Shown here piece by piece: positions 33,823 through 54,455 of a DNA stretch of 64,000 nt; positions within the stretch are counted from its first letter, which is position 1, and every line of letters begins with the position of its first letter. Source of the DNA: a bacterium (GTDB taxonomy: Bacteria; Zhuqueibacterota; Zhuqueibacteria; Residuimicrobiales; Residuimicrobiaceae); NCBI GenBank assembly GCA_029554865.1, contig JAKPUX010000228.1:25883-89882 (forward strand), read 5' to 3'. A program made the position numbers and the translations under genes. The notes under the pieces were generated by a model. The model had not been told where the DNA came from, searched no databases, and was given only the letters and a program-made list of their open reading frames with translations.

Positions 33823-34371
33823 CTAAAAAAACTGTGCAAGGATCTCCTTGCGCGGGGAGGGAATGACGATCTTTTCCACCAGCAGTCCGCGGCGTTTGAC
33901 CACGGCCGCGCCGGCGTCGACGGCGGACTGCACAGCGGCGACGTCTCCCGTCAGGGTGACATAGGCCTTGCCGCCGATGGCCATGGCGATATGGATTTCG
34001 AGCAGATCGACGGCGGCGGCCTTGACCGCAGCATCGGCGGCCTCGATGGCGGAGGCGACCGAAAAGGATTCGATGATGCCGAGGGCGCGCAGTTCCGGGG
34101 TATGGGAAATGCCGCTCAGGGCGGGGAAGACGCTGCGGTGGACATTGGGGATGACAAAATGGTCGACCACCTGATGGCCGCCCAGCTCCACTCCGGTCTC
34201 GATGCTCGCGTTGACGTCATCGACATCGCCGTTGACCAGGACCATATATTTGCCCGGGCAGATGGTGCGATTGACCACCACCTCGACCAGGGCCCGCTTG
34301 ACCATCGCATCTGCCACCTCGATGCCTTTGGCGATGCTTGAGAGTTCGACCAGACCTATTGCAGCAGCCAT
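33823..34371 (-). CDS. pduT: BMC-T shell protein, PduT-like (tandem BMC domains, Fe-S cysteine)
   Basis: 182 aa; two BMC domains; conserved RTICPGKYM matching the PduT [4Fe-4S]-ligating KTICPGKF. Confidence 0.85.
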   Translation of the reverse strand: MAAAIGLVELSSIAKGIEVADAMVKRALVEVVVNRTICPGKYMVLVNGDVDDVNASIETGVELGGHQVVDHFVIPNVHRSVFPALSGISHTPELRALGIIESFSVASAIEAADAAVKAAAVDLLEIHIAMAIGGKAYVTLTGDVAAVQSAVDAGAAVVKRRGLLVEKIVIPSPRKEILAQFF

Positions 34372-34395
34372 GATACTATCCTGCCTTGTAATTTG

Positions 34396-35745
34396 TTAAC
34401 CCTTGATGACGATACTTTTTTCGGATACGGCGGCGACGATGCCGGAGATGGAGGCGTGCACCGGGCAGCCCAGTTTTTCCTCGGCCACCTCGGCGATGAC
34501 CTGCCCCTTGACGACCCGGTCCCCGCTTTTGATCACAGGGACCGCGGGGGCCCCAATGTGCTGCTGCAGGGGCAGCTCGACCTCGGCCGGTGCAAAGTTC
34601 AGCTCCCTGAAGTGGGCCTTGCGGTCGTAGGGCTTGATGCCCAGGCGCTGATAGAGCATGGTGATCGGAATTTCACGGCTGCTGCGCACGGGATGGACAT
34701 CGAGAAAGAGCTCCTTAAGCTCTTCAGTGGTGCGCGAGATCTGTTTCTCGCGCAGCAGCTTTTTGGCGTCGACGCAGATGTTCTTGGGATCGAGCTTCTC
34801 CGGGCAGCTGAAGAGCGAACAGATATTGCATTCGCAGCAGTAGGCCGCCCAGAGTGAGTAGCGCTCCTTCTCGCTGCCGGTCATGAGCAGCGAGCGCATC
34901 ACCTTGTGCGGCTGGATCGGATAGCCGAGCAGGTAGCGCGGGCAGAGCTCAGTGCAGAGCGTGCACTGATCGCAGCAGCTGTGGCCGATGCGTTGATACT
35001 GGGCGGGCGGGGTAAGTTTGCGCACTGCCACCGGATGGTCCGCGGGCAGAAAAATGAGGCCGCCGTTGGTCTTGACGACGGGCAGGGCGAGATCGTTCTC
35101 GACTCCGCCCATCATGATGCCGCCGGTGAAGACCACCGGGCGGTTGAGGGTGGTGCCGCCGGCGAGAGCGAGGAGGTCGCTGAAGCGGGTGCCGACCGGG
35201 ATGCGCACGGTCATGGCTTCGCCGACGGCCCCGGTGATGGTGACATATTTATCCGTTACCGCATCTCCGCGCACGGCGCGGGCGATGTTGACAATGGTTT
35301 CGACGTTGTTGACGATGGCGCCGACATGCAGGGGCAGGCCGCCGGGGGGAATCTGCCGGCCGGTGATCTCGTAGACCAGCACATACTCGTCGCCGGCGGG
35401 ATAGACATCCTCCATGATGAAGAGGTCAAAGCCGAGTTTTTCGGCATCGGGCCGGAGGAGGGCGGCGACGTCGCTGTTCTTGCGCTTGACAGCTATGGTC
35501 ACCCTGCGGGCTCCGGTGAGCTGCTGCATGATCGACAGCCCTTCCAGGAGAAGCTCCTTTTCCTGGAGCATGACCTCGCGATCCTTGTACATCATCGGTT
35601 CGCATTCGGCGCCGTTGGCGATGATCTGTTCGACGCGGGCGTCCAGTTTTTTATAGGTGGGGAATCCCGCCCCTCCTGCGCCGACAACCCCTGCGGCGCG
35701 TATTTTCCGGAGGATGGTGCTGTTATCTTCCATCAGAATGCTCAA
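34396..35745 (-). CDS. pduS: PduS-like RnfC-family flavo/Fe-S oxidoreductase
   Basis: 449 aa; AGVVGAGGAGFPT NADH/FMN motif, two ferredoxin-type Cys clusters (CCDQCTLCTELCP, CCECNICSLFCP) and a C-terminal barrel-like domain; start could be M1 or M5. Confidence 0.75.
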   Translation of the reverse strand: MSILMEDNSTILRKIRAAGVVGAGGAGFPTYKKLDARVEQIIANGAECEPMMYKDREVMLQEKELLLEGLSIMQQLTGARRVTIAVKRKNSDVAALLRPDAEKLGFDLFIMEDVYPAGDEYVLVYEITGRQIPPGGLPLHVGAIVNNVETIVNIARAVRGDAVTDKYVTITGAVGEAMTVRIPVGTRFSDLLALAGGTTLNRPVVFTGGIMMGGVENDLALPVVKTNGGLIFLPADHPVAVRKLTPPAQYQRIGHSCCDQCTLCTELCPRYLLGYPIQPHKVMRSLLMTGSEKERYSLWAAYCCECNICSLFSCPEKLDPKNICVDAKKLLREKQISRTTEELKELFLDVHPVRSSREIPITMLYQRLGIKPYDRKAHFRELNFAPAEVELPLQQHIGAPAVPVIKSGDRVVKGQVIAEVAEEKLGCPVHASISGIVAAVSEKSIVIKG

Positions 35746-36562
35746 AGGTTTGATTCATGGTGATGGCCAGGGGAGTCAAATAGAGGGGTTCCGAGGGCAG
35801 AATGACCTCCAGGCCCGGCAATTCGGCGGCGAAGATATCGGCTGCGCCCGGGAAGCAGCAGGTGCCGCCGCTGAGATAGAGTTGTTCGACCGGACGGTCG
35901 GCGAGATGGGTTCTGATGATATCCGCCATCTTTTCAAAGACCGGCTGGATGATGGGCAGAATCTGCGCAGCGTCTGGGCCGCGCTTGATCGCTTCCGCTT
36001 CTTCATAGGAGATGCGTCGATTGCCGGCCAGGGTGAGGGTGACATGCCGGCCGCCGGTGGGCTCGTCGGCGGAATAGACGATCCGTCCCCCTTCGACGAC
36101 GGAGATGCCGGTGGTGCCGCCGCCGATGTCGACGACGGCGCCGCGGTCGATCTCGAGCAGCCGGGCCACCACCGAGGGTTCGTCGAGCATTCCGGTCACA
36201 TTCAGATTGGCAGCCTTCAGAACGTTGACGCAGGCATAGGGATCAGTGCCCGGAGGGAAAGAAGTGGAGGCGGTGGTGAAGTGCTGACCGAGTTTCTCCT
36301 CCGCTTTGGCGACCAGGGACTTGACGATCTGAATGGCCCCGAAATAGTCGAGCACCACCCCGTCGCGAACAACATCGGCCCATTCGAGAAAGGCGGCATG
36401 GGGCTCGCCGCTCTCGTCGCAGGCGATGAGGACGACGTCGGCGGTGCCGAGGTCGATGCCCAGGTGGCAGGGAGGGGCTCCGGTCACCCGCCGCTTGTTG
36501 TTGACCAGGGCGGCGACGCGCCGCAGGCGTTGATTCACCCTATCCAGTGCGGACATGGTCAT
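35723..36562 (-). CDS. eutJ: ethanolamine utilisation protein EutJ (actin/Hsp70-like ATPase)
   Basis: Start at MTMSALDRV immediately after the aldehyde dehydrogenase stop (the ORF track extends to 36706 across the upstream gene); ASKHA ATPase motifs LGIDLGTADVV and VVDIGGGTTGISV. Confidence 0.8.
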   Translation of the reverse strand: MTMSALDRVNQRLRRVAALVNNKRRVTGAPPCHLGIDLGTADVVLIACDESGEPHAAFLEWADVVRDGVVLDYFGAIQIVKSLVAKAEEKLGQHFTTASTSFPPGTDPYACVNVLKAANLNVTGMLDEPSVVARLLEIDRGAVVDIGGGTTGISVVEGGRIVYSADEPTGGRHVTLTLAGNRRISYEEAEAIKRGPDAAQILPIIQPVFEKMADIIRTHLADRPVEQLYLSGGTCCFPGAADIFAAELPGLEVILPSEPLYLTPLAITMNQTFEHSDGR

Positions 36563-36564
36563 CC

Positions 36565-37980
36565 TCAGACAATGCGGAAATGGTCGACGATGACGCAGCG
36601 GCGCAGGCGGACGAAGGTGCGGCTGCAGGTAACTCCTTCGCCGGTGGGGGTGGAGATGGTCATCGAGGTCCAGCCCTCCCCTCCGAAGCCAAGGCCGGCG
36701 ATGCACGGGCCGTTCTTGACGAAGATGCTGGTGTTAATCTCGCGCGACATGCGGTGGAGATGGTCGATGTTGCGCGAATGCATCGCGGCGGTATGGTGCA
36801 GCCCGTGTTCGAGCTCGATGGCGAGATCGATGGCGGCGTCGGCGTTGGCGGCGCGGATGAGGGAAATGACCGGCATCATCAGTTCGATCTGGGCGAAGGG
36901 ATGGGACTTGTCGGTTTCGGTGAAAAGCAGGCGCGTATCCGGGGGCACCTGGATGCCCGCCTCGCGGGCGATGACGGTGGCGTCCCGGCCGACCATCTTG
37001 CGGTTGATGACCGGATTGGGCCCGGGATACTCCTTCAGGATGACCTGGGCTACGGCCTCGGCCTGGCGGGCGTCAAGCTCGACTGCGCGGTTCTTCGCCA
37101 TTTCGCGTTTAAGCTGATCGGCGACGCTGTCGACGACGATGATTTCCTTCTCGTCGGCGCAGATGATGTTGTTGTCGAAAGAGGCGCCGGAAACGATGCA
37201 GGCGGCAGCGTGGGGGATATCCGCGCTCTCGTCGACGACCACCGGGGGATTGCCGGCGCCAGCGGCGATGAGACGCTTGTCGGTCTGGCGCCTCGCTTCA
37301 TGGACCACGGCCTCGCCGCCCGTGACGACAAGCAGACCGATGCCCGGGTATTTGAAGAGCTGCTGAGCGGTCTCGATGGTGGGCTGGGCCACGGCGGTGA
37401 GCAGGTTGTGGGGTCCGCCGGCAGCCACCACCGCTTCATTGAGCAGGCTGATGGTGCGCTGCGAGACCCGTTTGGCCGCCGGATGAGGCGCAAAGACCAC
37501 CGAGTTGCCGGCACTGACCATGCTGATCGCATTGTTGATCACCGTGGCCGCCGGATTAGTCGAAGGGGTCACTGAGGCGATGACGCCCCAGGGGGCGTTC
37601 TCGATCAGGGTGAGGCCGTGATCACCCGAGATCGCCTCGGCGTGGATCACCTCAGGGCCGGGGGTCCTGAGGGCCTGCGAGGTGTTCTTCGCCACCTTGT
37701 CCTCGACCCTGCCCATGCCGGTCTCCTCGACCGCCAGTTCGGCCAGTTCACGCGCGTGGCGTGCGCCGGCTTCACGCATGGCGAGAATAATCTTGTCCCT
37801 GAATTCCAGATTGCCGATTCTCTTCTGCGCGGCGGTTGCGGCGGCGACCGCTTCGTCGAGGGTCGCGAAGATACCGGCGGGCAGCGCGGATCTGCCGGTG
37901 GTATCACCCGACGTTGTGGTGCGCATGCGTTCTACCACCGCCTCGACGATGCGGGCGACCTCTTGTTGACTCAAATCCAT
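36565..37980 (-). CDS. eutE: CoA-acylating aldehyde dehydrogenase (EutE/PduP-like) with N-terminal encapsulation peptide
   Basis: 471 aa; ALDH-fold catalytic Cys region (NNIICADEKE), amphipathic N-terminus MDLSQQEVARIVEAVVERM. Confidence 0.9.
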   Translation of the reverse strand: MDLSQQEVARIVEAVVERMRTTTSGDTTGRSALPAGIFATLDEAVAAATAAQKRIGNLEFRDKIILAMREAGARHARELAELAVEETGMGRVEDKVAKNTSQALRTPGPEVIHAEAISGDHGLTLIENAPWGVIASVTPSTNPAATVINNAISMVSAGNSVVFAPHPAAKRVSQRTISLLNEAVVAAGGPHNLLTAVAQPTIETAQQLFKYPGIGLLVVTGGEAVVHEARRQTDKRLIAAGAGNPPVVVDESADIPHAAACIVSGASFDNNIICADEKEIIVVDSVADQLKREMAKNRAVELDARQAEAVAQVILKEYPGPNPVINRKMVGRDATVIAREAGIQVPPDTRLLFTETDKSHPFAQIELMMPVISLIRAANADAAIDLAIELEHGLHHTAAMHSRNIDHLHRMSREINTSIFVKNGPCIAGLGFGGEGWTSMTISTPTGEGVTCSRTFVRLRRCVIVDHFRIV

Positions 37981-37998
37981 TACGGGTTCTCCCTCTTA

Positions 37999-38295
37999 TC
38001 AGGCCGATTCACTTTTCTGATAGAGCACCCCGGCCTCCGAACTTACGGTATCGATGATGCCGACGATGGTGAGATCGATCGGCGTAGCGTTGTTGATGGA
38101 AACGCGGGCGGAGCTGCCGCGCACCACCAGGACCCACTCCCCCTCGCCGGCTCCGATGGTGTCGAGGGCGACCTGGGTTTTACCCGCCGCCTTGCCGTGT
38201 TCATCGATAAACCGGACGAGCAGCAGTTTGCCAATGGCCAGTTGCTCCATTTTGACGGTGGAGACCACCTGGCCGACCACTTTTCCGAGTTCCAT
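37999..38295 (-). CDS. eutN: BMC vertex (pentamer) protein EutN/CcmL family
   Basis: 98 aa; MELGKVVGQVVSTVK...GKLLLVRF... BMC-P signature. Confidence 0.85.
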   Translation of the reverse strand: MELGKVVGQVVSTVKMEQLAIGKLLLVRFIDEHGKAAGKTQVALDTIGAGEGEWVLVVRGSSARVSINNATPIDLTIVGIIDTVSSEAGVLYQKSESA

Positions 38296-38368: not shown

Positions 38369-38656
38369 TTACTTGATCTCGCCTTTCATCTTGATCGGGA
38401 AGATATCTTCCAGATCGCCATGGGGGCGCGGAATGACATGGACCGAAATCAGCTCGCCGATTTTCTGGGCGGCGGCTGCGCCGGCATCCGTGGCTGCTTT
38501 ACAAGCCGCAACATCGCCGCGCACAAGGGCGGTTACATAACCGGATCCGATCTGATGGAATCCGACCAGCTTGACCCGCGCCGCTTTGACCATCGCATCC
38601 GAGGCCTCGATGAGCGCCACCAGACCACGGGTTTCAATCATACCCAATGCTTCCAT
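38369..38656 (-). CDS. eutM: BMC-H shell protein EutM (copy 1)
   Basis: 95 aa; [32 protein letters not shown]..., near-identical to canonical EutM. Confidence 0.9.
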
Positions 38657-38682
38657 ACCACTTTCTCCTTTCCTTGGAAAAA

Positions 38683-38973
38683 TTACCCTTCAATAGTGCC
38701 TTTCATCTTGATCGGGAAGATATCTTCCAGATCGCCATGAGGACGCGGGATAACATGTACGGAGATCAGTTCGCCGATTTTCTGCGCCGCTGCGGCGCCG
38801 GCGTCAGTGGCCGCCTTACAGGCCGCGACATCGCCGCGCACCAAGGCGGTCACATAACCGGACCCGATCTGGTGGAACCCCACCAGTTTCACTCTCGCCG
38901 CCTTGACCATAGCATCCGAGGCTTCGATCAGCGCGACAAGTCCTCTGGTTTCGATCATTCCCAGTGCTTCCAT
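38683..38973 (-). CDS. eutM: BMC-H shell protein EutM (copy 2)
   Basis: 96 aa; protein identical to copy 1 over the first 92 residues, with a different C-terminal tail. Confidence 0.9.
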
Positions 38974-39011: not shown

Positions 39012-39995
39012 TCAACTTCTCGCCATATAAGCGGCTGTCATGGAGATTTCGACGATATCCTCCCAACTGCAGCCGCGGGAGAGGTCATGCATTGGTTTGC
39101 ACAGCCCCTGCAGGAAGGGGCCGAGCGCCTTGAATCCGCCCAGACGTTCCACCAGCTTGTAGCCGATATTGCCTGCGTTGAGATCGGGGAAGATGAAGAC
39201 ATTGGCCTGGCCCGCCACCGGGCTCCCCGGGGCCTTTTTGGCGGCGACCGCCGGCACAAAGGCCGCATCGAACTGGAGTTCGCCGTCCACCTTGAGATTG
39301 GGGGCCTTGGCCTTAACCAGCTCCGTCGCCTGCCGCATCTTGTCGACCTTGGCGTGGCTGGCGCTCCCCTTGGAGGAGAAGGAGAGCATCGCGACCCTGG
39401 GTTCGTTGGCGGTCAGCCGTTCATACTGCGCGGCCGTAGCCACAGCGATGTCGGCCAGCTGCTCGGGGGTCGGATCGGGGAGCACCGCCGCATCGGCAAA
39501 GGCGTAGACCGACTCGCCGTCGGGGGAGATCATCGCAAAAAAGCTCGAGACCGTGCGCAGGCCGGGGGCCACGCCAAGGACGTGAATAGCCGCGCGCAGC
39601 ACATTGGCCGTCGACGACAGGTTGCCGGCGATGCAGAGATCCGCCTGGGCGTCGCGGAGCAGCATGGCCCCCATGTAAAGGGGATCATCGAGGCGCTGGC
39701 CGGCCTCATAGGCGGTCATGCCCTTCTCCTTGCGCGACTCGTGCAGGATGCGCACATAACGTTCGCGCTCCGGCACATGCTGGGGATGAAGGATGACCAG
39801 ACCGCGGGTCGGGATGTGCACCTTGTCCGCGAATTCCCGCAGTTCGAAGCGGCCGCCGAGGAGGATGGGCTGGGCGAGGCGTTCATCCTTGAGGTAGCGG
39901 GCCGCTCGCAGCACCCGTTCATCGCGGGCGTCGGGAAAGACAATGCGGCGCGGCTGCCAGCGGCAGTATTCGGTGGCGAGATGGATCAGCTTCAT
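39012..39995 (-). CDS. pta: phosphate acetyltransferase (Pta/EutD-type, short form)
   Basis: 327 aa; phosphate acetyl/butyryltransferase family (…[19 protein letters not shown]…SSKGSASH…). Confidence 0.85.
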
Positions 39996-40816
39996 CGTTC
40001 GAGCACCACTTTTTCGAGAGTGAGCTGTTTGCCCTGTTCGGCCAGCAGGGTCAGCAGCATGAGCACATAGAGGGCGCTGCTGAGGCGATTGGCCGCCTGG
40101 ATCAGATCGGGACGGGTGACGGTGAGGTCCGGGGCGATAAAGACCCTGGCGGCCTCGACCTCCGCCTCACGCACCTGGGCGCGCAGCAGATTAAGCAGCG
40201 CCACATTACGGCCGTGACTCATCTCCGGGACGATGTGGTCGTGGCCCAGATACTTGAGGGGGTTGTGCGAGACCGCATGGACCACATTTTCATCGGCGCC
40301 GCCGAGGGCGATCGGGATCATCGTCTCCCCGCTCACCTCGCTTTTAAGCAGATTGCCGAGGTAGGAGCGGACGTCCGCGAGATAGGGGTGGAGCCAGGGG
40401 AACTTGTTCTCGCGATCGAATTCGATCTGGACCAGGACCGTGTGAGCGATCAGGGTGTCGATCTTGCCGCGCAGGGCGATGCGGGGGTGGTTCTTGACCA
40501 CCATGGTGTTGGTATCCAGATGGGTGAGGGCTTCAGGTTTCTTCGCCACCGGCTGATGGCAGAGCAGACACTCCGCCTTCTGGCCTCCGGTGCTGCTGGT
40601 CAGGGGATGTACCTGCACGGGAGCCTCCTCGCCGCTCTTGTCCGGATTGAAGACCCGGCCTTCGGCGTCGATGTATTTGATGACGATCTTGCGTTCTTCG
40701 AGCAGCTGATGCGCGGCCGGGGTCAGTCGGCTGTCGAGGGGGAGATGGACCTCGGTGCCCCAGCCCAGACCGAATTTTTCGCGCAGCCAGCCCTCGGTGA
40801 TATATTCGGAAGCCAT
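39992..40816 (-). CDS. eutT: EutT-type cobalamin adenosyltransferase
   Basis: 274 aa; recalled EutT blocks [68 protein letters not shown]. Confidence 0.75.
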
Positions 40817-41601: not shown

Positions 41602-42069
41602 TTACTCTCCCGGATGGACGGCAGAAAAGGGCTCCCTGCTCAGAAAACGGCGCAAGGCATCGATGCTTTCGGGCTGGTAGACCGAGACCGGATAGATGGG
41701 GCCCTGGATGCCCGCATCCCGGATGAGCTCCTCGACCTCGGAGACCCGGGCATCCTCAAGATCGATTTTGGAAATGACGCCGATGATTTGTTTGGTCTCA
41801 TAGATATGAAACAAGCCAAAAGGCAGTTTGCGCTCCAGGGAGTTGGCCTGGTGCACATAGACAATGGTCTGGATATCGGTCATGGTCGAGATGAGCGCCG
41901 TATAGAGCCGGGGATTGTCAAAGTACTCGCCCGGGGTGTCGATGGTGCACTCATCGTGAAAGACCAGGGCCTGGGTTTTCTGGACCTCCCCCAGCCGGCC
42001 GAGCAGGGCTGCAAAGAGAGTCGACTTGCCCACCCCGGTGCCGCCGATGAGGATAAAATTGTTGAGCAT
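41602..42069 (-). CDS. eutP: EutP/PduV-family GTPase
   Basis: Start at [17 protein letters not shown] (the ORF track extends to 42318 in another gene's frame); P-loop plus DTPGEY switch; ATGA overlap with the eutS stop. Confidence 0.85.
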   Translation of the reverse strand: MLNNFILIGGTGVGKSTLFAALLGRLGEVQKTQALVFHDECTIDTPGEYFDNPRLYTALISTMTDIQTIVYVHQANSLERKLPFGLFHIYETKQIIGVISKIDLEDARVSEVEELIRDAGIQGPIYPVSVYQPESIDALRRFLSREPFSAVHPGE

Positions 42070-48255: not shown

Positions 48256-49491
48256 TTACTTCAGGAGTTTCGCTTCCGATTTGCCGACTGAAATGGTTTC
48301 GGACTGGGGCAAAAGCAGACCGGTGTTCTCGTTGCGGCCCTGGAGGATGAAGCGCGGAGTCTTCTCCGTCATCTGTTCCACGGCGAGCTTGCTGGCCTTG
48401 CCGATCGGGCCGCCCTTGAGGCGGTTGAAGATCAGGGCCAGTTTCATGCCCTTGAACTCGGTGATCATCTCATAGTCGCCGTCGCTGTCGGAGGCGGAGA
48501 AGATCGGATCGCCGCGATGGCCGAGCACCTTTTTGATGGCTTCCACTTTGCCCATGCGCTGGGTCTGCACCCAGCCGGTCTTGTACTGCGGCAGCAGTAT
48601 GTTATTTTTCACTTCCAGTTCCATGGCAATGACCTTGTTGGGGTCGATGTTGTAGCCGAAATTGCCAGGGGCGCCGAAGGTCTGGACCACCTGCTTGAGG
48701 CTGGCGGAGCAGATGTAAACGTCGATGCCGGCTTTCATCATCGATTCGGTCAGATCCTGCATCTCGGGATGGACGCGCAGGCCGCTCTTGTAGGTATAGT
48801 CAATCGGACCGGCCTTGCAGGCGAAGTTGCAGGGGGCTTTCCAGGTCACCTTGGTCAGTTTGTCGTTAAGAGCGAAGGTGATCGCATCTTTGGCCAGGGC
48901 CTGAACCTCTTCGACGGAGTGATTGGCCAGGAAGAAGAGCACCCAGGGATAGCCGTAGACAGCCTCGATGCCGGCGGTCTCGCAATAGCCGTCATAGAGG
49001 AAGGGCATCTTGGTGATGAAATCCTTGAACTGCGGGGTCTCGCGGATCTCTTCAATGGTCATCTTGCCGACGCCGAAGCCCGCATAGTTGTCATGCAGGA
49101 ATTCATAGGCGGAGATGATGTCGGCGTTGATGTCGGCCAGCTTGATGTTTTTGTAATCGGCATTGAGCTGCTTGACACCATTGACCTCGTCCTTGAAGAG
49201 GGCCTTGAACTCTTCCTTGCTCAGCTTGAACTTGAGATTCCAGAGCTGATGACGGAAGGTCGCCTCTTCGCAGTCAAGATGGGCCATGGTCTGGTCCCAG
49301 TCGAGAGCGACGTAGGGGGGATTCTTCTTGTCGTAGTACTTGCCGCCCACACCATAGTCCTTGATGAACTTGGAAAGGACTTCGTAGTTGCGCGGGGACC
49401 AGTTCATTTTGTTGAGGGCATAAACGGAGCTGGTGCCCAGGAAAAGAACAGCGATGAGAAGCAGGGCTATCGGGAGAAAAAATCTCTTCAT
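48256..49491 (-). CDS. secreted HAD-superfamily phosphatase (signal peptide, DxDxT motif)
   Basis: 411 aa; N-terminal signal peptide MKRFFLPIALLLIAVLFLGTSSVYA; HAD motif I DWDQTM, motif IV-like SASDSDGD; lower GC than flanking genes. Confidence 0.55.
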   Translation of the reverse strand: MKRFFLPIALLLIAVLFLGTSSVYALNKMNWSPRNYEVLSKFIKDYGVGGKYYDKKNPPYVALDWDQTMAHLDCEEATFRHQLWNLKFKLSKEEFKALFKDEVNGVKQLNADYKNIKLADINADIISAYEFLHDNYAGFGVGKMTIEEIRETPQFKDFITKMPFLYDGYCETAGIEAVYGYPWVLFFLANHSVEEVQALAKDAITFALNDKLTKVTWKAPCNFACKAGPIDYTYKSGLRVHPEMQDLTESMMKAGIDVYICSASLKQVVQTFGAPGNFGYNIDPNKVIAMELEVKNNILLPQYKTGWVQTQRMGKVEAIKKVLGHRGDPIFSASDSDGDYEMITEFKGMKLALIFNRLKGGPIGKASKLAVEQMTEKTPRFILQGRNENTGLLLPQSETISVGKSEAKLLK

Positions 49492-49527: not shown

Positions 49528-50595
49528 CTAGAACTCCACCCAGAACTGGGTGACAAAGCGCAGGTTGCCTTTGGATTCATCGCCAACCTTGAAGCCGTCG
49601 CGGACGACGTTGAACATCAGATAGTTCTCGCCGATGATCTTGTAGTTGAGGCCGGCGAGGATCATGTTCCACTCATCATTGTCCACATCGCCATTGGGAT
49701 CGAGCTGGCCATACTCGCCGACGAACATCAGGTTCGGGAGGATGTTATAGTTGACATAGCCCATGTAGGTCAGGCCACTGACGCCATCGAGTTCGGGGAC
49801 CGCCTCGACGTTCTTCTTGCCGGTAGTGACTTCAACACCGACATCGAGCTTCTTGTCGATGGCGTACTCAGCGCCGCCGCCGATCCAGAAGTTGTTGTCC
49901 TTGTTGCTGGCCTTGTTGTAGTAATCGGTCATGGTCCAACCGAAAACGGAGAGGCCGGCTACCGGTTTCAACCAGATGTCAGCGATGACGTTTTTGGCTT
50001 TGTTGTCTTCTTTGGCATAGCTGTAGGTGTTCTTGTTGGCCACGGCGAGGCGGGCATAGCCCTTGACGCCCAGGCTGGCCGGGAGGTTGTAGGTCGCCAT
50101 GGCGCCGGTGACGGCAGAGCTGTAGCCATTGTCAAAAGCGGTGCCGCTGACGTAAGCGAAGCGGTCGATCCACGAATTTTCGATGGTGTTGTGGTAGCTC
50201 TGAGCTCCCGGCTGCTCATAGTTGCCAAAGAGCATCTCGAGGCCCGGCAAACCCAGGAAATTCTTGAACTGAATGTAGGCGTACTTGATGCGGGCGTTGG
50301 TGCCCTGATTCAGCAGTTTGCCGTTCTGGGGGTCGGTGTAGTTGCGGTGGTTGAAATCCAGGGTGTAGCGCATCGCGATGTTGTCCGAGTATTTGTATCT
50401 CATCGTGACATAGCCGCGATCGAAGTAGAAGTAGTTGGAGGTTGCTTTGGTGTAGGGTTCCTCGACCATGTAGCGGTAGCGCAGAACGGTCTGGAAGGTG
50501 AGTTTGTCGTTGAGCTTTTCAGCCTGGGCCACGCTCGAGGCGAAGATCAGAACTACCAGCGTCAACAGGATGGTAACGGTGAGTTTTTTGTACAT
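49528..50595 (-). CDS. outer-membrane beta-barrel porin
   Basis: 355 aa; signal peptide, alternating amphipathic beta-strand pattern rich in Tyr/Gly/Asn, C-terminal ...FWVEF with terminal Phe; lower GC. Confidence 0.6.
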   Translation of the reverse strand: MYKKLTVTILLTLVVLIFASSVAQAEKLNDKLTFQTVLRYRYMVEEPYTKATSNYFYFDRGYVTMRYKYSDNIAMRYTLDFNHRNYTDPQNGKLLNQGTNARIKYAYIQFKNFLGLPGLEMLFGNYEQPGAQSYHNTIENSWIDRFAYVSGTAFDNGYSSAVTGAMATYNLPASLGVKGYARLAVANKNTYSYAKEDNKAKNVIADIWLKPVAGLSVFGWTMTDYYNKASNKDNNFWIGGGAEYAIDKKLDVGVEVTTGKKNVEAVPELDGVSGLTYMGYVNYNILPNLMFVGEYGQLDPNGDVDNDEWNMILAGLNYKIIGENYLMFNVVRDGFKVGDESKGNLRFVTQFWVEF

Positions 50596-50669
50596 ACTAC
50601 TCCTCCTTAGATTGGGGTTTGGGTGGATTGATCAAGCCGTGGAGCCACCGGCCGCGATCTTTCGTTTGC

Positions 50670-51929
50670 TCATTCTCCCTTGGGTGGGGCGGCTTCCAGG
50701 GCCGCCTGGCTGCCCTTGGGGGCAAGGAGCATGGCGAAGAGCACTGCGGTGATGCCTCCGATGAGTTTGCCGACAATTACTGCAAAGATCATGTCCGGCT
50801 TGTTTGCTGCGGTGAAACCAAGATGGTCGCCGAAGGTGAAGGCGGCGCTGACGGCGAAGGCGACATTGAGGACCTTACCGCGGTCATCCATGCCGCTCAT
50901 CAGCTTGAACATCGGGATGTTGTTGGCCAGGGTGGCGATCATGCCGGCGGCGGCGGTGCTGTTCATCTTGAGCAGGCGGCCGACGCTGAGCAGGGGTTTT
51001 TCGAACCAGCGCGTGAGGAGATAGACCATGGGATAAGCGCCGAGGAGGACGATGGCGATACGGCCGATGACCTCGATGGCGCGCAGGTCGATGCCGGGCT
51101 GATCACCGCTGACCGGGAAGATCGGATCCATGCCGGGGATGATCTTGAGGCCGGTGAGGGTCTCGAGGACGATCGAGGCGAGGCCGAGTGTGATCAGGGC
51201 CACCAGCAGCTTGGCGAAGACCAGGAAGCCCTTGATCATGGCGTTGGGTCGGCGCCAGAGTCCGAGGGCGATGAGCAGGGAGACGATGACCACCGGGATG
51301 AGGTTCTTGAAGATCAGCCCCAGGGTGAAAATCACCGCGGTGCCGTCCGCTGCCTTGATGTTGGAGATCATGGCCACCAGACCGCCGGCGATACAGCCGA
51401 GGGGGATGGTGACGATGCCGGCGAGGACGCCGAGGGCGAGGTGTTTGCGGTCGGCCTTGTCGATGATGCCGATGCCGACGGGTATCGAAAAAACGATGGT
51501 CGGGCCCATCATGGCGCCCAGGATGAGGCCGGCGTACATCCAGGCGGGATAGTCGATCTGGCCCGCTGTGGTGGCCAGCTCTTTGGCGAGGAAAAAGCCG
51601 CCCATGTCATTGGCCAGCAGGGTGGTGGCGAACATGGCGGGGCTGGCGCCGAGGAACTGGTAGAGAGGGATGATGACCGGGCCGAGCAGGCGGGCCAGCA
51701 CCGGGGCCAGGCTGATCACACCCACCATGGCCAGGGCAAGGGGCCCCATGGCGTTAAAGCCCTCCTCGAATTGGGCCCCTGCGCCGTCAAAGGCGCGGCC
51801 CAGCCGGCCGAGGCGCACCCTTTTGAAAACGCTTTCCGATCCCCCGAACTGCATCAGGATGCGATCCAGGGCGCCCAGCACCATGAATGCCATCATGATG
51901 TCGATGATGATTTGATTGACCAGTGCCAT
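50670..51929 (-). CDS. eutH: ethanolamine permease EutH
   Basis: 419 aa polytopic membrane protein matching the EutH family. Confidence 0.8.
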   Translation of the reverse strand: MALVNQIIIDIMMAFMVLGALDRILMQFGGSESVFKRVRLGRLGRAFDGAGAQFEEGFNAMGPLALAMVGVISLAPVLARLLGPVIIPLYQFLGASPAMFATTLLANDMGGFFLAKELATTAGQIDYPAWMYAGLILGAMMGPTIVFSIPVGIGIIDKADRKHLALGVLAGIVTIPLGCIAGGLVAMISNIKAADGTAVIFTLGLIFKNLIPVVIVSLLIALGLWRRPNAMIKGFLVFAKLLVALITLGLASIVLETLTGLKIIPGMDPIFPVSGDQPGIDLRAIEVIGRIAIVLLGAYPMVYLLTRWFEKPLLSVGRLLKMNSTAAAGMIATLANNIPMFKLMSGMDDRGKVLNVAFAVSAAFTFGDHLGFTAANKPDMIFAVIVGKLIGGITAVLFAMLLAPKGSQAALEAAPPKGE

Positions 51930-51967
51930 CTTTTCTGCTTCCTTCCGGGTTTAGCTGTTCTCTGCTG

Positions 51968-53188
51968 TCAGAGTGCCTGTTGGTAAATCCTGATGATATC
52001 CTCTTTCTGCGCCGTGCGCGGGTTGGTGCGCAGGCAGCTGTCCTGCAGCGCCTGGTCGGCGAGCTGGGGCAGATCTTTGTCCGTGACCCCGAATCCGGCC
52101 AGACCCGAGGGCATGCCGAGATCCTCGATGAGGTGGATGACGGCGGTGACAGCACGCTCGGCGGCCTCCCGCCGGTTCAGGTTTTCGACCCTCTCTCCGA
52201 GGGCGGTGGCGATATCGCCGAACTCTTCGGCCCGCACCAGCAGGTTGAAGCGCATCACATGCGGCAGGATCAGGGCGTTGGCCGTGCCGTGCGGGATCTT
52301 GAAGCGGCCGCCCGCCTGATGAGACATGGCGTGGCAGAGGCCCAGGCCGGCGTTGGAAAAGGCCATGCCGGCCATGTAGCAGGCGACGGCCATCTTGTGG
52401 CGCGCCAGGGTGTTGGTGCCGTAGCCGACGGCGATGGGCAGATAGGTCGCAACCAGGCGGATGGCGCGGAAGGAGAGCGCGCGCGCCAGGGTGCAGGAAC
52501 TCTGGGCGACATAGGCTTCGATGGCGTGGGTCAGCACGTCGAGGCCGGTGGCGGCAGTCACCGCCGGCGGCAGGCCGATAGTCAGCAGGGGGTCGATGAT
52601 CGCCACGGCGGGGATCAGGGCTGGATGTTCAAAGACGACCTTGCGGCCGGAGGCGGGATCGCCGATGACGGCGAGGTCGGTGACCTCTGAAGCGGTGCCC
52701 GCTGTGGTCGGCATGGCGGCCAGAGGAAGAGGCTTTTGCGCCAGCTCGCTGTCGGGATCGATCTCGGCGAAGGGAAGGGGGTTGCGGGCGAGCAGGGCGA
52801 TCATCTTGGCGGCATCGATAGGAGAGCCGCCGCCAACCGCCAGAACCGCATCGCATCCTGCGCTCTTGACCATCGCCGTGCCCGCGTTCACCATCGCCCA
52901 GGTCGGTTCACCCGAGATCTGGGCGAAAATCTCCGCACTCAGCCCCTTGCGCTGCAGGGAACGCAGGACGACATCGAGGAGGCCGAGCTGAAGGATGGTC
53001 TGATCGGTGACGATCAGCACCCGGCTGGCCCCGATCCGTTTCATCTCCGCGCCGGTCCTGGCCGCGACCCCGTCACCCACAAGGGCCAACGGCGGCACGC
53101 GGAAGGTGAAATGGTTGGCGACGGAGATCTCGTCCACGGTCTGGGCGACGATCTCTTCGATGAAGCGCTGTTCGCTGCCTCTCTCCAA
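51968..53188 (-). CDS. eutG: iron-containing alcohol dehydrogenase EutG-like with N-terminal encapsulation-type extension
   Basis: 406 aa; Fe-ADH motifs (GGGSPIDAAK, metal-binding His cluster CHAMSHQ); about 25-aa N-terminal amphipathic extension RFIEEIVAQTVDEI before the ADH core. Confidence 0.85.
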   Translation of the reverse strand: MERGSEQRFIEEIVAQTVDEISVANHFTFRVPPLALVGDGVAARTGAEMKRIGASRVLIVTDQTILQLGLLDVVLRSLQRKGLSAEIFAQISGEPTWAMVNAGTAMVKSAGCDAVLAVGGGSPIDAAKMIALLARNPLPFAEIDPDSELAQKPLPLAAMPTTAGTASEVTDLAVIGDPASGRKVVFEHPALIPAVAIIDPLLTIGLPPAVTAATGLDVLTHAIEAYVAQSSCTLARALSFRAIRLVATYLPIAVGYGTNTLARHKMAVACYMAGMAFSNAGLGLCHAMSHQAGGRFKIPHGTANALILPHVMRFNLLVRAEEFGDIATALGERVENLNRREAAERAVTAVIHLIEDLGMPSGLAGFGVTDKDLPQLADQALQDSCLRTNPRTAQKEDIIRIYQQAL

Positions 53189-53190
53189 GG

Positions 53191-53856
53191 CTACTGTTTC
53201 CTGAGATTCTCAATGAACAATCGGATCGCTTCGCGCGCGGCGAGCTTGACCGGATCCCGCCCGACAGCCTCGTCAAAGGCCCCGCTGCGGGCGACGACGC
53301 CCTCGAAACGGCCGTGGGCCAGCGTGACGGCCCCGCTGCGGTCAAAGATGGCATAATCGAGCTTCGCCGCCATACCGCGCACAGGGGCATCGCTGCTCCG
53401 CATCGACACATCGTCGCTGGCCTCCTGGGTGATGGTCAGTGCCGCAGGGGCCACGATGAAATCGAACCCCTGGGGCGCCGAGGTCAGTCTGGCGGGATCG
53501 AGGGCGGCCGCGCGCCAGTAATCCTTTTCCTGCACCACGGAGAGCACCGGCGCCGCATCCGCTGCTGCGGCCTCCGCCCAATAGATGGTCTTCCAGGGGC
53601 CGGCTGTAAAGGCCTGATAGAGATCCTGCTGGATGAGAGCGCGGACCTGGTCGAGATCATCGGATTTGTCGAAGAGGGAGATGACGGAGGAGGAGCTTTC
53701 AATATCGATAAGAGTCAGGGGAAGCAGAAGGATGTTCTTGCCATGAAGGTCACGCTTGCTGAAAGAGGGATCGTCCACCTGCAGGGGTTTTACAAAGGAG
53801 TGGCAGCCGGCGATGATCAGCAGTAGCAGACAAAAGGGAGGCAATATTTTTTTCAA
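53191..53856 (-). CDS. lipoprotein of unknown function
   Basis: Start proposed at TTG with AGGAG 8 nt upstream (the ORF track ATG lies at 53895); lipobox LLIIAGC. Confidence 0.45.
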   Translation of the reverse strand: MKKILPPFCLLLLIIAGCHSFVKPLQVDDPSFSKRDLHGKNILLLPLTLIDIESSSSVISLFDKSDDLDQVRALIQQDLYQAFTAGPWKTIYWAEAAAADAAPVLSVVQEKDYWRAAALDPARLTSAPQGFDFIVAPAALTITQEASDDVSMRSSDAPVRGMAAKLDYAIFDRSGAVTLAHGRFEGVVARSGAFDEAVGRDPVKLAAREAIRLFIENLRKQ

Positions 53857-53878
53857 GGTGTTAACTCCTGGATTGGTT

Positions 53879-54292
53879 TCAGACCAGGTGCACATGACTG
53901 GAATGGTTCTTCTTTTTCAGGCCGCGGGTCACCGCCTGAATGAGCTGCTGGTCGTCGAAGGGTTTGTCGAGATACCCCGCGCAGCCGCGTTCGCGCAGCC
54001 CGGTGCGCAGCTCAGTATCGCCATAAGCCGAGATGGCGATCAACGCATAGTAGGATCTAAAGTGCTGCAGCTCCTCGAGCAGGGCCAGTCCACCGGAAAC
54101 CGGCATCTGCAGGTCGATGATGACAAGCTGGACGGGACAGCCCTGGCTCTCCGCGAGTTGGATCTTCTTCAGGGCCTCACCGAGATTCCGGGCCGAGCTG
54201 ACCAGAAAACGCGCGCTTTGCAGGATAAAATCGATGCTGTCTCGCGTGTATTCATCGTCATCAACGATGAGTATGTGCGGCGAATTATCCAT
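53879..54292 (-). CDS. stand-alone response-regulator receiver (CheY-like) protein
   Basis: Start at MDNSPHILIVDDDEYT (the ORF track begins at 54313); receiver acidic pocket and VIIDLQMP phospho-Asp region; no output domain. Confidence 0.75.
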   Translation of the reverse strand: MDNSPHILIVDDDEYTRDSIDFILQSARFLVSSARNLGEALKKIQLAESQGCPVQLVIIDLQMPVSGGLALLEELQHFRSYYALIAISAYGDTELRTGLRERGCAGYLDKPFDDQQLIQAVTRGLKKKNHSSHVHLV

Positions 54293-54317
54293 AGCGGGCC
54301 CTTGTTTGCACACTCTA

Positions 54318-54338
54318 CTTGCAATAAGCAGGCCAAAG
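54318..54338 (-). promoter_or_regulatory. candidate sigma-54 (-24/-12) promoter for the eut/BMC operon
   Basis: Minus-strand sequence cTTTGGCCTGCTTATTGCAag: GG-N10-GC spacing with TGGC at -24 and TTGCA at -12, about 35 nt upstream of the receiver ATG and downstream of a sigma-54 activator gene. Confidence 0.4.
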
Positions 54339-54415
54339 CGGCGCGGACATCTTTATTGATAATAAAAACAGTCAGATAGCGCAATCAATGACAGGCGGGA
54401 GGCGGGAAAAGGGGT

Positions 54416-54455
54416 GCCACAAAAATGCCTTGCCGAGGTGCATGCCGGGCAAGGC
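54416..54455 (-). terminator. putative rho-independent terminator after the sigma-54 activator gene
   Basis: Minus-strand hairpin GCCTTGCCG...CGGCAAGGC (9-bp stem) followed by ATTTTTGT. Confidence 0.45.

Follow-up and report, generated by a model that had tools for sequence, protein, structure and literature searches.

The 64,000-nt window, the whole stretch of DNA that was analysed, carries 24 genes in one orientation (54292-33823, minus strand) whose Pfam and NCBIfam assignments cover all Eut functions. The locus is probably a functional, EUT1-like ethanolamine metabolosome operon that combines a Eut core with putative modules for control, substrate supply and compartment positioning (Table 1). 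Its unusual parts are the ParA, porin and phosphatase genes. In the 2021 BMC catalogue, this locus type was left unassigned or incomplete.

Organization and integrity of the operon

Counted from the receiver gene onward, the 24 genes have intergenic distances of -17 to +74 nt and contain no terminators above chance; on the basis of this spacing and terminator result, they apparently form a single transcription unit. The first-pass annotation had reported about 24 genes with every Eut hallmark present, and both statements stand, except that five of the genes (receiver, lipoprotein, porin-like outer-membrane protein, secreted HAD phosphatase and ParA ATPase) had been left unnamed. It had also described a circular permutation of the enteric order. 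Relative to the Salmonella eut operon, the two gene blocks are indeed swapped, giving the order G-H-A-B-C-L-K / S-P-Q-T-D-M-M-N-E-J followed by PduS-PduT; the arrangement is not a plain permutation, as PduS/PduT have kept their place at the 3′ end, and there are three insertions (the porin and HAD genes between H and A, and ParA between K and S). A T9SS-type protein is encoded near the operon, so the source, an uncultured bacterium of anaerobic digesters, is probably a member of the FCB group.

EutBC and the reactivase EutA would make acetaldehyde within a shell of two EutM copies, EutK, EutS, EutL, PduT and EutN, and EutE, Pta and EutG would process the aldehyde and recycle cofactors. EutC has an N-terminal segment that we take to resemble the encapsulation peptide of enteric EutC. 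The EutB sequence is 70-74% identical to proteobacterial EutB, which argues against a closer relationship of EutB/EutC to other B12-dependent lyases, while EutE and EutL are 62-75% and 55-76% identical to their counterparts in other loci. The alcohol dehydrogenase scored 337 bits against the NCBIfam EutG model, under its cutoff of 556, and its EutG role is therefore assigned by context. The EutM copies are identical over their first 92 residues, with DNA that is just 83% identical. The Pta-type phosphotransacetylase is a EUT1 hallmark (PMC4207490).

At the head of the operon, the receiver's start codon (ATG at 54292) is conserved. The lipoprotein that follows had no Pfam or NCBIfam match, and a set of 5.8 billion proteins yielded just 5 clusters of homologues; in the two clusters with fetched contigs (loci L175 and L176), it occupies the same position.

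A chimeric misassembly that fused eut and pdu-like fragments has a negligible probability. The only observation in its favor is a fall in GC content to 0.55 at 48-50 kb, which reflects amino-acid composition, because the GC3 there (0.80-0.81) matches that of adjacent genes. Neither GC nor GC3 shifts at PduS/PduT; moreover, at least 6 independently assembled metagenome or MAG contigs show the same gene order, and the architecture recurs in other species.

Table 1. Features of the eut locus and its upstream control region, listed in the direction of transcription.
Feature	Coordinates	Strand	Evidence
Histidine kinase (membrane N-terminus, PAS, HisKA-like region, HATPase_c)	57232..58683	-	Pfam
dCache_1 + HAMP membrane sensor, without output domain	55943..57199	-	Pfam
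Sigma-54-dependent response regulator (REC, AAA+ Sigma54_activat, HTH_8)	54513..55946	-	Pfam, Sigma54_activat E 1e-58
Conserved block AAATAGGTGCCACA, distal inverted-repeat arm, candidate activator-binding site	54505..54518	-	
Conserved block TTTTGTGGCACCC, proximal arm, reverse complement of GTGCCACA	54412..54424	-	
Sigma-54 -24/-12 promoter TGGCCTGCTTATTGCA, GG-N10-GC	54320..54335	-	Position and conservation
Stand-alone receiver-domain protein, operon gene 1	53879..54292	-	Pfam Response_reg
Predicted lipoprotein, lipobox IAGC, lineage-specific	53191..53895	-	Sequence
Fe-dependent alcohol dehydrogenase (EutG role)	51968..53188	-	Pfam Fe-ADH/ADH_Fe_C
EutH ethanolamine permease	50670..51929	-	PF04346, E 8e-131
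Outer-membrane beta-barrel porin, distant OprO/OprP (Porin_O_P) relative	49528..50595	-	Signal peptide, C-terminal Phe
Secreted HAD-IB phosphatase, PchP-related	48256..49491	-	PDB 4gxt E 2e-48; PchP 4as2 E 2e-5
EutA reactivase	46762..48198	-	PF06277, E 5e-166
EutB, ethanolamine ammonia-lyase large subunit	45386..46747	-	PF06751, E 1e-207
EutC, lyase small subunit	44477..45367	-	PF05985, E 2e-78
EutL, trimeric tandem-BMC shell protein	43781..44446	-	Two BMC domains
EutK	43191..43772	-	Pfam/NCBIfam; end-to-end alignment with enteric EutK
Soj-like ParA/MinD-family ATPase	42430..43194	-	AAA_31/CbiA
EutS, permuted BMC-H shell protein	42069..42428	-	NF012012, 179 bits (cutoff 123)
EutP GTPase	41602..42069	-	PF10662, E 2e-29
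EutQ (N-terminal helical region + cupin)	40821..41588	-	PF06249, E 4e-33
EutT-type corrinoid adenosyltransferase	39992..40816	-	NF011595, 338 bits (cutoff 226)
Pta-type phosphotransacetylase (EutD)	39012..39995	-	PF01515, E 4e-113
EutM copy 1 (BMC-H)	38683..38973	-	PF00936
EutM copy 2 (BMC-H)	38369..38656	-	PF00936
EutN, BMC-P vertex protein	37999..38295	-	PF03319
EutE CoA-acylating acetaldehyde dehydrogenase	36565..37980	-	PF00171
EutJ (actin/Hsp70-fold)	35723..36556	-	FtsA/PilM_2/MreB matches
PduS-like flavin/Fe-S oxidoreductase	34396..35733	-	Complex1_51K, SLBB, Fer4_17, RnfC_N
PduT-like tandem-BMC shell protein, pore Cys38	33823..34371	-	Domains and structure alignment

PduS and PduT

The annotated 3′ end of the operon was confirmed: PduS carries its cofactor motifs (GAGGAG, plus the Cys motifs CDQCTLCTELC and CCECNICSLFSC), and the proposed Fe-S cysteine of PduT is Cys38 within CPGKY, as aligned to solved PduT structures. 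The accompanying view that the pair is an unusual Pdu-type import did not survive comparison. Among 80 EutB loci fetched, PduS and PduT followed EutL/EutK in 13 proteobacterial EUT1-type loci and were present in 5 Firmicutes loci; PduS has been described for EUT2B/2D (PMC4207490), and the EUT1 main loci in the catalogue of the PMC8217296 supplement include PduT. The pair is common in EUT1-type and some EUT2 loci, and therefore is no unusual Pdu graft. The intact cofactor motifs and pore cysteine, together with the swapped blocks, could be read as an enteric-type operon that was circularly permuted and gained a foreign module, creating an unusual electron conduit across the shell; that history is very unlikely, however, and is already largely refuted by these comparative data, by the uninterrupted GC and GC3 profile, and by an EutJ-PduS-PduT junction that is kept across lineages and BMC types. 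EutT with PduS would regenerate adenosyl-B12, and the Fe-S pore of PduT offers a possible electron route, which is the ordinary role of PduS/PduT, common in EUT loci.

Probable control by a sigma-54 system

No AraC-type EutR gene was found at the locus, as had been noted at first pass, and the sigma-54 control proposed in its place is supported by the genes and elements upstream. The kinase, dCache sensor, activator and receiver genes are kept together as a conserved cassette: the kinase cassette is retained in loci L175 and L176, where the dCache sensor again lies between kinase and regulator, and the sigma-54 activator has orthologues ahead of the eut genes in L175, L176 and the more distant L177. 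The -24/-12 element and the two upstream inverted-repeat sites are kept in these three other lineages. In particular, the promoter TGGCCTGCTTATTGCA is identical in L176, reads TGGCCTGCTTCTTGCT in L175, and is found in the same place as TGGCATCTTCTTTGCT in L177; in L176 and L175, it is identical or near-identical, compared to an intergenic region that is 58-75% identical. Similarly, AAATAGGTGCCACA is invariant across three species whose intergenic region is merely 58% identical overall, GTGCCACA is also found in L177, and some 80 nt separate the proximal arm TTTTGTGGCACCC from the -24 element downstream of it. The promoter call rests on position and conservation, because the -24/-12 pattern with two mismatches allowed is no commoner than chance in the window (27 occurrences, 30 expected). 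The window does not contain rpoN.

These elements suggest that the membrane PAS kinase, the dCache-HAMP sensor and the sigma-54 activator stand in for EutR. The activator would probably bind the inverted repeat GTGCCACA...TGTGGCAC and then fire the -24/-12 promoter at 54335-54320.

A porin and a secreted phosphatase between eutH and eutA

The porin itself has weak OMP_b-brl and DESULF_POR1 matches and no direct Porin_O_P match. However, 11 of its 29 remote relatives match Porin_O_P, and its family profile matches OprP (2o4v, 1.7e-7) and OprO (4rjx), so that for the window protein the relationship to OprO/OprP is transitive and weak. The porin is conserved in eut loci L087, L095, L175, L176 and L177. 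The phosphatase contains a DxDxT motif (DWDQT) and SDSDGD, and has homologues in eut loci L087 and L095 as well as in those of Thauera, Pseudothauera and Accumulibacter, where PduT is followed by the phosphatase homologue. Both genes have the GC3 of the remaining operon.

By structure match, the phosphatase is a relative of PchP, a phosphorylcholine/phosphorylethanolamine phosphatase. Besides phosphorylcholine, PchP also hydrolyses phosphorylethanolamine. The porin and phosphatase would probably admit a phosphorylated head group, for example phosphoethanolamine, and dephosphorylate it to supply ethanolamine to EutH. The pair could instead serve general phosphate scavenging, or be unrelated envelope proteins, considering that the OprO/OprP family is selective for phosphate or pyrophosphate and that the closest solved structure of the phosphatase (4gxt) has no assigned function. 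This is somewhat unlikely: the two genes still lie between eutH and eutA in L095, where identity has fallen to 51-55%, the L177 eut operon keeps the porin at 50% identity, the phosphatase is attached to Rhodocyclales eut loci too, and its characterised relative acts on phosphorylcholine.

EutK, ParA and a proposed role in compartment positioning

EutK consists of a BMC-H domain (residues 1-93), a disordered basic linker (95-130, net charge +11) and a winged helix-turn-helix (132-190), and its AF2 model shows the same three parts. The C-terminal profile matches the EutK C-terminal domain 3i71 and the winged helices of CAP, MarR and Lrp. The end of eutK and the start of parA share 4 nt; the parA product has the signature Lys10 in KGGVGKT and an invariant R188, and its closest structures are chromosomal, DNA-binding ParA/Soj proteins.

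The pairing of these genes is strict. Across 11 distinct related loci examined (five of the eut type and six of the aldolase or shell-only type, two of the 11 having been reached via EutK without reference to ParA), the ParA clade directly followed an EutK-like gene in 11 of 11, with ParA identities of 43-100% and spacings of -26 to +12 nt. The partner has a BMC domain, a usually basic linker and a winged helix in these loci. Further, the independent ParA and EutK match lists are linked by about 25 contigs of exactly equal length. By comparison, BMC genes were found at none of 77 generic ParA loci (≤41% identity), nor alongside a 40%-identical Soj gene. Within 10 kb of EutB, none of 80 other EutB loci had a ParA in the orientation of the eut genes, the single match (30% identity, in L056) being on the opposite strand. 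McdB-like genes are absent.

In Salmonella, deletion of eutK leaves Eut BMCs polar and static, and a ParB-like role was suggested (PMC12487888). As loss of EutK mislocalises Eut compartments there, EutK is proposed as a shell-embedded adaptor for ParA. Seated in the shell, it would expose the basic disordered linker and the winged helix on the cytosolic side. ParA, which is Soj-like and translationally coupled to EutK, would probably bind the nucleoid as an ATP dimer, and EutK, in the place of a ParB or McdB, would be the cargo adaptor that allows compartments to be spaced and inherited by a diffusion-ratchet. If so, the EutK and ParA pair may explain organelle spacing in the cell.

ParA might not position compartments at all. 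Together with the winged helix of EutK, it could be a regulator that acts on DNA (by Soj-like transcriptional control, or by tethering newly forming compartments at the eut locus), or it could be a passenger partition gene. Its similarity to chromosomal Soj, the resemblance of the EutK C-terminus to sequence-specific regulators and the missing EutR would fit. We consider this improbable, as the pair is kept in 11 of 11 loci with varied BMC types and regulators, which argues against a passenger gene; regulation is already explained by a sigma-54 system of the operon's own; and the Salmonella mutant still forms Eut BMCs, at the poles.

Alternatively, EutK alone, by means of the basic linker and the winged helix, may tether compartments to the nucleoid, likened to PhaM, PhaF and AlgP on storage granules, with ParA using another partner or only modulating spacing. 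Lys/Ala/Pro-rich linkers resemble histone-like DNA-binding tails (PMC13052382), and enteric EutK may act without ParA, because it positions BMCs with no operon-encoded ParA (PMC12487888) and Salmonella Pdu BMC positioning is unaffected by ParA or MinD (PMC12866334). Such tethering is also improbable: the strict adjacency and overlapping stop and start codons suggest that EutK and ParA are made together in matched amounts, and the basic tail tracks with the presence of ParA, since the three enteric EutKs examined have acidic linkers (and one Oxalobacteraceae EutK has a near-neutral one). Of 30 ParA-linked EutKs, 27 have a basic linker; however, the three exceptions, EutK-like proteins of aldolase-type loci, still precede ParA, and a basic linker therefore cannot be its universal contact. 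The enteric case weighs against the adaptor proposal, since Eut BMCs are positioned there via EutK although the operon encodes no ParA.

Gene content and integrity of the operon

The region is a dense minus-strand run of 24 genes, according to Pfam and NCBIfam scans, with intergenic gaps from -17 to +74 nt. These scans confirmed the gene list and block order of the first-pass annotation, made from the sequence alone, with two amendments: five of the 24 genes had been left unnamed, and the order, described as a circular permutation of the enteric one, has the swapped blocks as described and three inserted genes besides.

Features of the eut region and its surroundings (window positions)
Feature	Position	Strand	Remarks
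tmRNA gene	58751-59114	-	directly upstream of the histidine kinase gene; tag ADDYSYALAA; Rfam 194 bits
PAS histidine kinase			upstream of the 24-gene run; Pfam
dCache_1-HAMP membrane protein	57199-55943		upstream of the run, between PAS kinase and sigma-54 regulator; Pfam
Sigma-54 activator			upstream of the run; Pfam
Invariant block AAATAGGTGCCACA	54518-54505	-	one of the two longest invariant blocks
Invariant block TTTTGTGGCACCC	54424-54412	-	the other of the two longest
TGGCAC element	54419-54404		
-24/-12 element TGGCCTGCTTATTGCA	54335-54320	-	in the 220-nt gap from activator gene to receiver gene
Stand-alone receiver protein	54292-53879	-	first gene of the run
Predicted lipoprotein	53895-53191	-	lipobox IAGC; second gene, between receiver gene and eutG
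EutG-like Fe-ADH, then EutH		-	Pfam/NCBIfam
Porin-like outer-membrane protein	50595-49528	-	after EutH
Predicted secreted HAD phosphatase	49491-48256	-	before EutA
EutA, EutB, EutC, EutL, EutK, successive		-	EutA PF06277 E 5e-166; EutB PF06751 E 1e-207; EutC PF05985 E 2e-78
ParA/MinD-family ATPase	43194-42430	-	between EutK and EutS
EutS, EutP, EutQ, EutT, EutD, in that order		-	EutT above NCBIfam equivalog cutoff; EutD Pta-type, PF01515 E 4e-113
EutM, two copies	38973-38683, 38656-38369	-	Pfam/NCBIfam
EutN, EutE, EutJ, then PduS, PduT		-	Pfam/NCBIfam
SUF-type Fe-S assembly operon	27770-33709	+	SufB, SufC, SufD, FeS_assembly_P, cysteine desulfurase, NifU_N scaffold
T9SS C-terminal sorting-domain protein	23987-24949	+	320 aa
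1554-aa ORF	19313-23977	+	before the T9SS-domain gene; no Pfam match
B12-binding radical-SAM gene	3514-4842		far window end
LarA-like (lactate racemase family) gene	75-1340		far window end

Two readings that would undo the assignment had been raised, and both fail. A chimeric misassembly is contradicted by the same gene order in at least six independently assembled metagenome or MAG contigs, by its recurrence in a sister species at protein identities of 76-96% and by an even GC3; a grouping of EutB and EutC with other B12-dependent lyases is contradicted by the 70-74% identity of EutB to proteobacterial EutB (best match in the genome collection, 74%). GC content is flat overall, except for a dip to 0.55 across the porin and phosphatase genes, whose GC3 (0.80-0.81) equals that of their neighbours. 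The dip is therefore due to amino-acid composition and not to foreign DNA, and horizontal acquisition of the two genes, considered on the basis of GC, was rejected. Scans for sigma-70 promoters and terminators inside the operon stayed at chance level.

The predicted lipoprotein has just five homologous clusters among 5.8 billion proteins, and its homologues on two fetched contigs (the comparison loci L175 and L176) occupy the same slot. The two EutM copies are identical in their first 92 residues and 83% identical in DNA (50 differences), so that every DNA difference in that stretch is synonymous, a pattern that on its face points to extreme purifying selection acting on the two copies, without gene conversion in recent times.

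Probable sigma-54 control and the absence of EutR

The sigma-54 control proposed in the first-pass annotation is borne out as very probable by elements conserved in four lineages. In particular, the -24/-12 element is identical in L176 and reads TGGCCTGCTTCTTGCT in L175, where the activator-receiver gap is overall 75% and 58% identical to that of the window, respectively. The two longest invariant blocks, AAATAGGTGCCACA and TTTTGTGGCACCC, form an inverted repeat and are positioned like activator-binding sites, with GTGCCACA/TGTGGCAC as the candidate activator-binding sequences. The layout is the same in the far more distant locus L177 (receiver 37%, activator 63% identical), in which GTGCCACA, GTGGCAC and TGGCATCTTCTTTGCT follow one another ahead of the receiver gene. 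The cassette of kinase, dCache protein, activator and receiver is conserved, and three features expected of such control are found: a GG-N10-GC promoter, an adjacent bacterial enhancer-binding protein and candidate activator sites upstream. Two-mismatch matches to the -24/-12 consensus are not enriched in the window (27 found versus 30 expected), and the support for the promoter thus comes from its position and its conservation across the four lineages, not from a single two-mismatch match, which is at chance level. The second TGGCAC element was considered as a promoter and rejected, having no -12 GC and no conservation in the -12 part; it is better read as a putative activator site.

Every ORF between 58683 and 33823 was assigned and none is AraC-like, in agreement with the earlier report that EutR is absent. 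There is no rpoN within the 64-kb window, and the Rfam scan returned no B12 riboswitch, the tmRNA being its sole match. The dCache_1-HAMP protein carries no kinase, MCP or cyclase output domain, and may sense a periplasmic ligand as a separate input to the kinase, which would make this a three-component system.

PduS and PduT are ordinary components of eut loci

The first-pass annotation gave most weight to PduS and PduT as Pdu-type components in a Eut compartment; the observation holds and the emphasis does not. PduT is a tandem-BMC protein whose pore Cys38, in CPGKY, aligns to solved PduT structures (3nwg, 3pac and 3n79), as expected of the Fe-S cysteine named earlier; it scores 150 bits against NCBIfam eut_PduT, below the cutoff of 250. 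PduS has the NADH/FMN (Complex1_51K) domain, GAGGAG and two 4Fe-4S Cys motifs, which answers the suggested check of its flavin and iron-sulfur motifs. In a tblastn comparison of the window proteins with 80 loci that contain EutB (one genome for each species), PduS and PduT stood at the 3' end in 13 EUT1-type loci of Proteobacteria, among them Pluralibacter, Morganella, Photobacterium, Thauera, Zhongshania and Pseudomonas citronellolis, and they occurred in five Firmicutes loci as well. Moreover, PduS is a feature of EUT2B/2D (PMC4207490), and PduT homologues in EUT1 main loci are catalogued in the searchable text of the supplement to the 2021 BMC locus catalogue (Sutter et al. 2021; PMC8217296).

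As judged by these homologues, the module is ordinary in eut loci. PduS likely reduces corrinoid for EutT-dependent regeneration of adenosyl-B12, which is its usual role as known from established Pdu biochemistry, and the Fe-S pore of PduT may, by the same analogy, pass electrons. The features of interest are the EutK-ParA pair and the porin-phosphatase pair, both of which had gone unnoticed.

The SUF operon and the eut operon are convergent, meeting at the PduS/PduT end of the latter. This adjacency is probably coincidental, since it is not kept in the sister species, where L087 has a beta-helix protein in that place. No eut link was seen for the LarA-like and radical-SAM genes.

A ParA ATPase is strictly paired with EutK

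The eutK and parA genes share 4 nt, where the stop of the first overlaps the start of the second. Homologues of the ATPase at 42-92% identity form a clade, and every member with a readable neighbourhood lies in a microcompartment locus, directly after an EutK-like gene (167-207 aa). The pair occurs in contigs of identical order to the window, in L087/L088, in the aldolase/MIC4-type loci L089/L090 and a JGI contig, in L091 (Calditrichota) and L174, in an Ignavibacteriae eut locus with the window gene order (L092), and in L094 and L095. In the reverse test, both EutK-like proteins picked regardless of ParA (L177 and L178; 2 of 2) precede a ParA of the clade, and the independent ParA and EutK match lists coincide exactly in about 25 'longest contig' entries. 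When metagenomes were scanned with the ParA alignment, generic Walker-A patterns dominated the result, which comprised 77 ordinary ParA loci and just three clade members and served as a negative control only. No BMC genes lie at the 77 generic loci (at most 41% identity) or at a 40%-identical Soj gene by scpAB. Further, ParA is found on the eut strand in none of 80 other EutB loci; one (L056) has a 30%-identical match on the opposite strand.

The clade keeps Lys10 of the KGGVGKT signature (a deviant Walker A) invariant, and likewise Arg188, which we take to be the position of the Soj DNA-binding arginine; the window gene lies inside the BMC operon. Its profile matches chromosomal Soj/ParA proteins at 4e-60 to 2e-49 (Thermus Soj, E 1e-54) and McdA (6noo) at 6e-16 over the N-terminal 170 residues only. 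An Mrp/NBP35-type Fe-S carrier, which would share the P-loop, was rejected: the P-loop alone matches, and the clade does not conserve the Cys residues of the window protein. No McdB-like ORF follows parA, the next gene in the window, eutS, starting 1 nt past its stop.

In two non-eut loci of the same chassis, an ORF of about 100 aa after parA (L091, 10817-11119, identified by sequence inspection; L174, 10793-11101, by tblastn) lacks a cupin domain and is similar to EutQ in its N-terminal helical part only; a third non-eut locus, L178, has an ORF of about 100 aa after parA at 10396-10710. The N-terminal helical region of EutQ is a reported shell-cargo link in Salmonella.

EutK itself aligns end to end with enteric EutK at 35% identity. 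An AF2 model, built with an alignment of database homologues, predicts with confidence a BMC domain and, beyond a disordered linker (95-130), a domain of three helices plus a hairpin, and the C-terminal profile matches the E. coli EutK C-terminal domain (3i71) and the winged helices of CAP, MarR and Lrp. Foldseek matches to the model were dominated by the BMC domain and were uninformative for the C-terminus. Of the 30 ParA-linked EutKs, 27 have a strongly basic linker (median net charge +8); the remaining three all belong to aldolase-type loci. Enteric EutK linkers are acidic (-2 to -4, n=3), and that of one Oxalobacteraceae EutK is near-neutral.

Sequence analysis has placed McdA/McdB-like genes inside or close to a few operons other than those of carboxysomes, EUT and PDU operons among them, and none has been studied (PMC8359340, section 2.9; PMC8262871; PMC13052382). 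In Salmonella, deletion of eutK leaves Eut compartments polar and static, and its authors offer the speculation that EutK works in the manner of ParB or together with it, the mechanism being 'to be determined' (PMC12487888). PduK likewise prevents polar aggregation in Salmonella (PMC13052382), and Salmonella ParA and MinD have no effect on Pdu positioning (PMC12866334). The searchable text of the catalogue supplement (PMC8217296) makes no mention of ParA.

What is new here, at the level of gene arrangement, is that eutK and parA are strictly paired and translationally coupled, with no McdB, in loci of several compartment types. From this pairing we infer, with slightly more confidence than doubt, that EutK is a shell-embedded adaptor for the Soj-derived ATPase. 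The wider proposal, that EutK is the cargo adaptor of a two-part metabolosome segregation system with a dedicated ParA, stands at an even chance. Under this proposal, the basic disordered linker and winged helix of EutK would be a ParB/McdB-like module on a shell protein, and ParA together with EutK would space Eut and related compartments over the nucleoid. The non-basic-linker subgroup implies that the basic linker would not be the contact surface for ParA in every locus.

A putative porin and a predicted secreted phosphatase between eutH and eutA

The phosphatase is a predicted secreted HAD-IB hydrolase of 411 aa, with DxDxT and SDSDGD motifs and a signal peptide read from its sequence; it matches PDB entry 4gxt, which has no assigned function, at E 2e-48, and the phosphorylcholine phosphatase PchP remotely, at E 2e-5. 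The porin has 355 aa, a signal peptide and a C-terminal Phe, and its direct family matches are weak. Its family is rare (34 representative clusters among 1.84 billion proteins). There is no direct Pfam match to the window porin itself; Porin_O_P (PF07396), the model of the phosphate-selective OprO/OprP porins, matches 11 of 29 remote relatives, P0309 and P0312 passing the cutoff. A profile of the family aligns with the whole length of OprP (1.7e-7) and of OprO. A single-sequence AF2 model of the porin was of low confidence (pLDDT 34).

L087 and, at 51-55% identity, L095 keep both genes in this position between eutH and eutA. L177 retains the porin; it has no eutG or eutH next to the operon, and the slot beside its porin holds a 412-aa protein (2059-3297) without a Pfam match or detectable similarity to the window phosphatase. 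A phosphatase homologue (37% identity) follows PduT in L012, L017 and L020 (Thauera, Pseudothauera and Accumulibacter), loci with divergent eut blocks in which no match to EutA was found near EutB. It is an evenly balanced possibility that the two proteins form a front end, in which the porin would admit, and the phosphatase dephosphorylate, head groups of the phosphoethanolamine type, supplying EutH.

An EUT1-like locus outside the Proteobacteria

Comparison with the BMC locus classes (Axen 2014; Sutter et al. 2021), which the first-pass annotation had recommended, gave a divided result. The signature EutB/EutC with the EutA reactivase (Pfam) is that of EUT1, as is a Pta-type EutD in place of PduL, a hallmark of that class (PMC4207490). 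A sigma-54 system stands where EUT1 has the AraC-type EutR, the host is neither a Beta- nor a Gammaproteobacterium, and the canonical order S-P-Q-T-D-M-N-E-J-G-H-A-B-C-L-K is broken by swapped blocks and three inserted genes. By exact match the operon proteins belong to unclassified anaerobic-digester MAGs and share 90% clusters with 'bacterium ADurb.Bin431', the nearest relatives of several locus proteins carry Calditrichota, Ignavibacteriae or Bacteroidetes names, and relatives of the locus are found in Ignavibacteriae and Calditrichota. With the T9SS sorting-domain protein of the window, this suggests a probable affinity to the FCB group. In its searchable text, the catalogue supplement describes EUT1 as 'exclusively' Beta- and Gammaproteobacterial and labels ADurb.Bin431 and Ignavibacterial eut genes 'incomplete' or 'UA (omitted)' (PMC8217296); a full-text literature search gave no further mention of ADurb.Bin431. 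By its predicted enzyme content (Pta-type EutD, EutT, EutG, EutS and EutK) the locus is EUT1-like, and it is a complete form of this type outside the Proteobacteria, unassigned in the main catalogue.

Elsewhere in the window, a gene for a protein with a T9SS C-terminal sorting domain follows the 1554-aa ORF, whose exact sequence is absent from the protein collection.

Implications

McdAB accounts for carboxysomes only, and the distribution and inheritance of catabolic compartments is a wider question; control of Eut compartment distribution by EutK was shown in Salmonella in 2025. If true, the proposed EutK-ParA system would provide a mechanism for the mislocalisation phenotypes of Salmonella ΔeutK and ΔpduK mutants, and it would be the second ParA-based means of positioning microcompartments, with an independent evolutionary origin. 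The eutK-parA pair is a concrete hypothesis for which two proteins are enough for a test, and it could supply a compact positioning part for engineered compartments. In addition, eut genes are here under apparent sigma-54 control, and the locus raises the possibility that phospho-head-groups, rather than free ethanolamine, feed the pathway in some anaerobes.

Comparison with known systems

Among the closest known systems is the EUT1 operon of Salmonella enterica and E. coli (eutSPQTDMNEJGHABCLKR), which has the same enzyme and shell set, including a Pta-type EutD, an EutT-type adenosyltransferase, EutG, EutS, EutK and EutH; EutB is 70% identical, and both gene blocks are collinear within themselves. 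The window differs in having its blocks swapped, EutM duplicated and no EutR, in its control by a predicted sigma-54 and two-component system, in the addition of PduS/PduT, ParA, porin, phosphatase, receiver and lipoprotein, and in a host from neither the Beta- nor the Gammaproteobacteria. The proteobacterial EUT1-type loci with PduS/PduT share the Eut core and the 3'-end pair, but there the pair lies behind EutL/EutK, whereas in the window it lies behind EutJ, and those loci have no ParA. In their fetched flanks, tblastn found no homologue of the window porin; the Thauera, Pseudothauera and Accumulibacter loci do share the HAD phosphatase homologue.

The phosphatase resembles PchP of Pseudomonas aeruginosa in its HAD fold with DxDxT, in its predicted secretion and in a detectable, remote homology, and the porin resembles OprP/OprO through its full-length family profile, again remotely. 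A literature search found neither a PchP-like phosphatase nor an OprP/OprO-like porin inside a eut operon.

The ATPase is like McdA in being a ParA-family protein with a deviant Walker A, encoded in a microcompartment operon. However, it is Soj-like and falls outside the McdA clades, and where McdAB systems have a small disordered McdB with a C-terminal Trp or aromatic residue downstream, the window has none, its sole conserved partner being the upstream shell protein EutK. Members of this ParA clade also occur in the FRAG1/MIC4 loci (Sutter et al. 2021) of Ignavibacteria, Calditrichota and relatives, which have an aldolase or no signature enzyme instead of EutABC. Finally, the EutK of Salmonella matches that of the window in architecture and can be aligned with it over the entire length; in contrast to the enteric loci, which have an acidic EutK linker and no ParA, the window combines a strongly basic linker with a translationally coupled parA.
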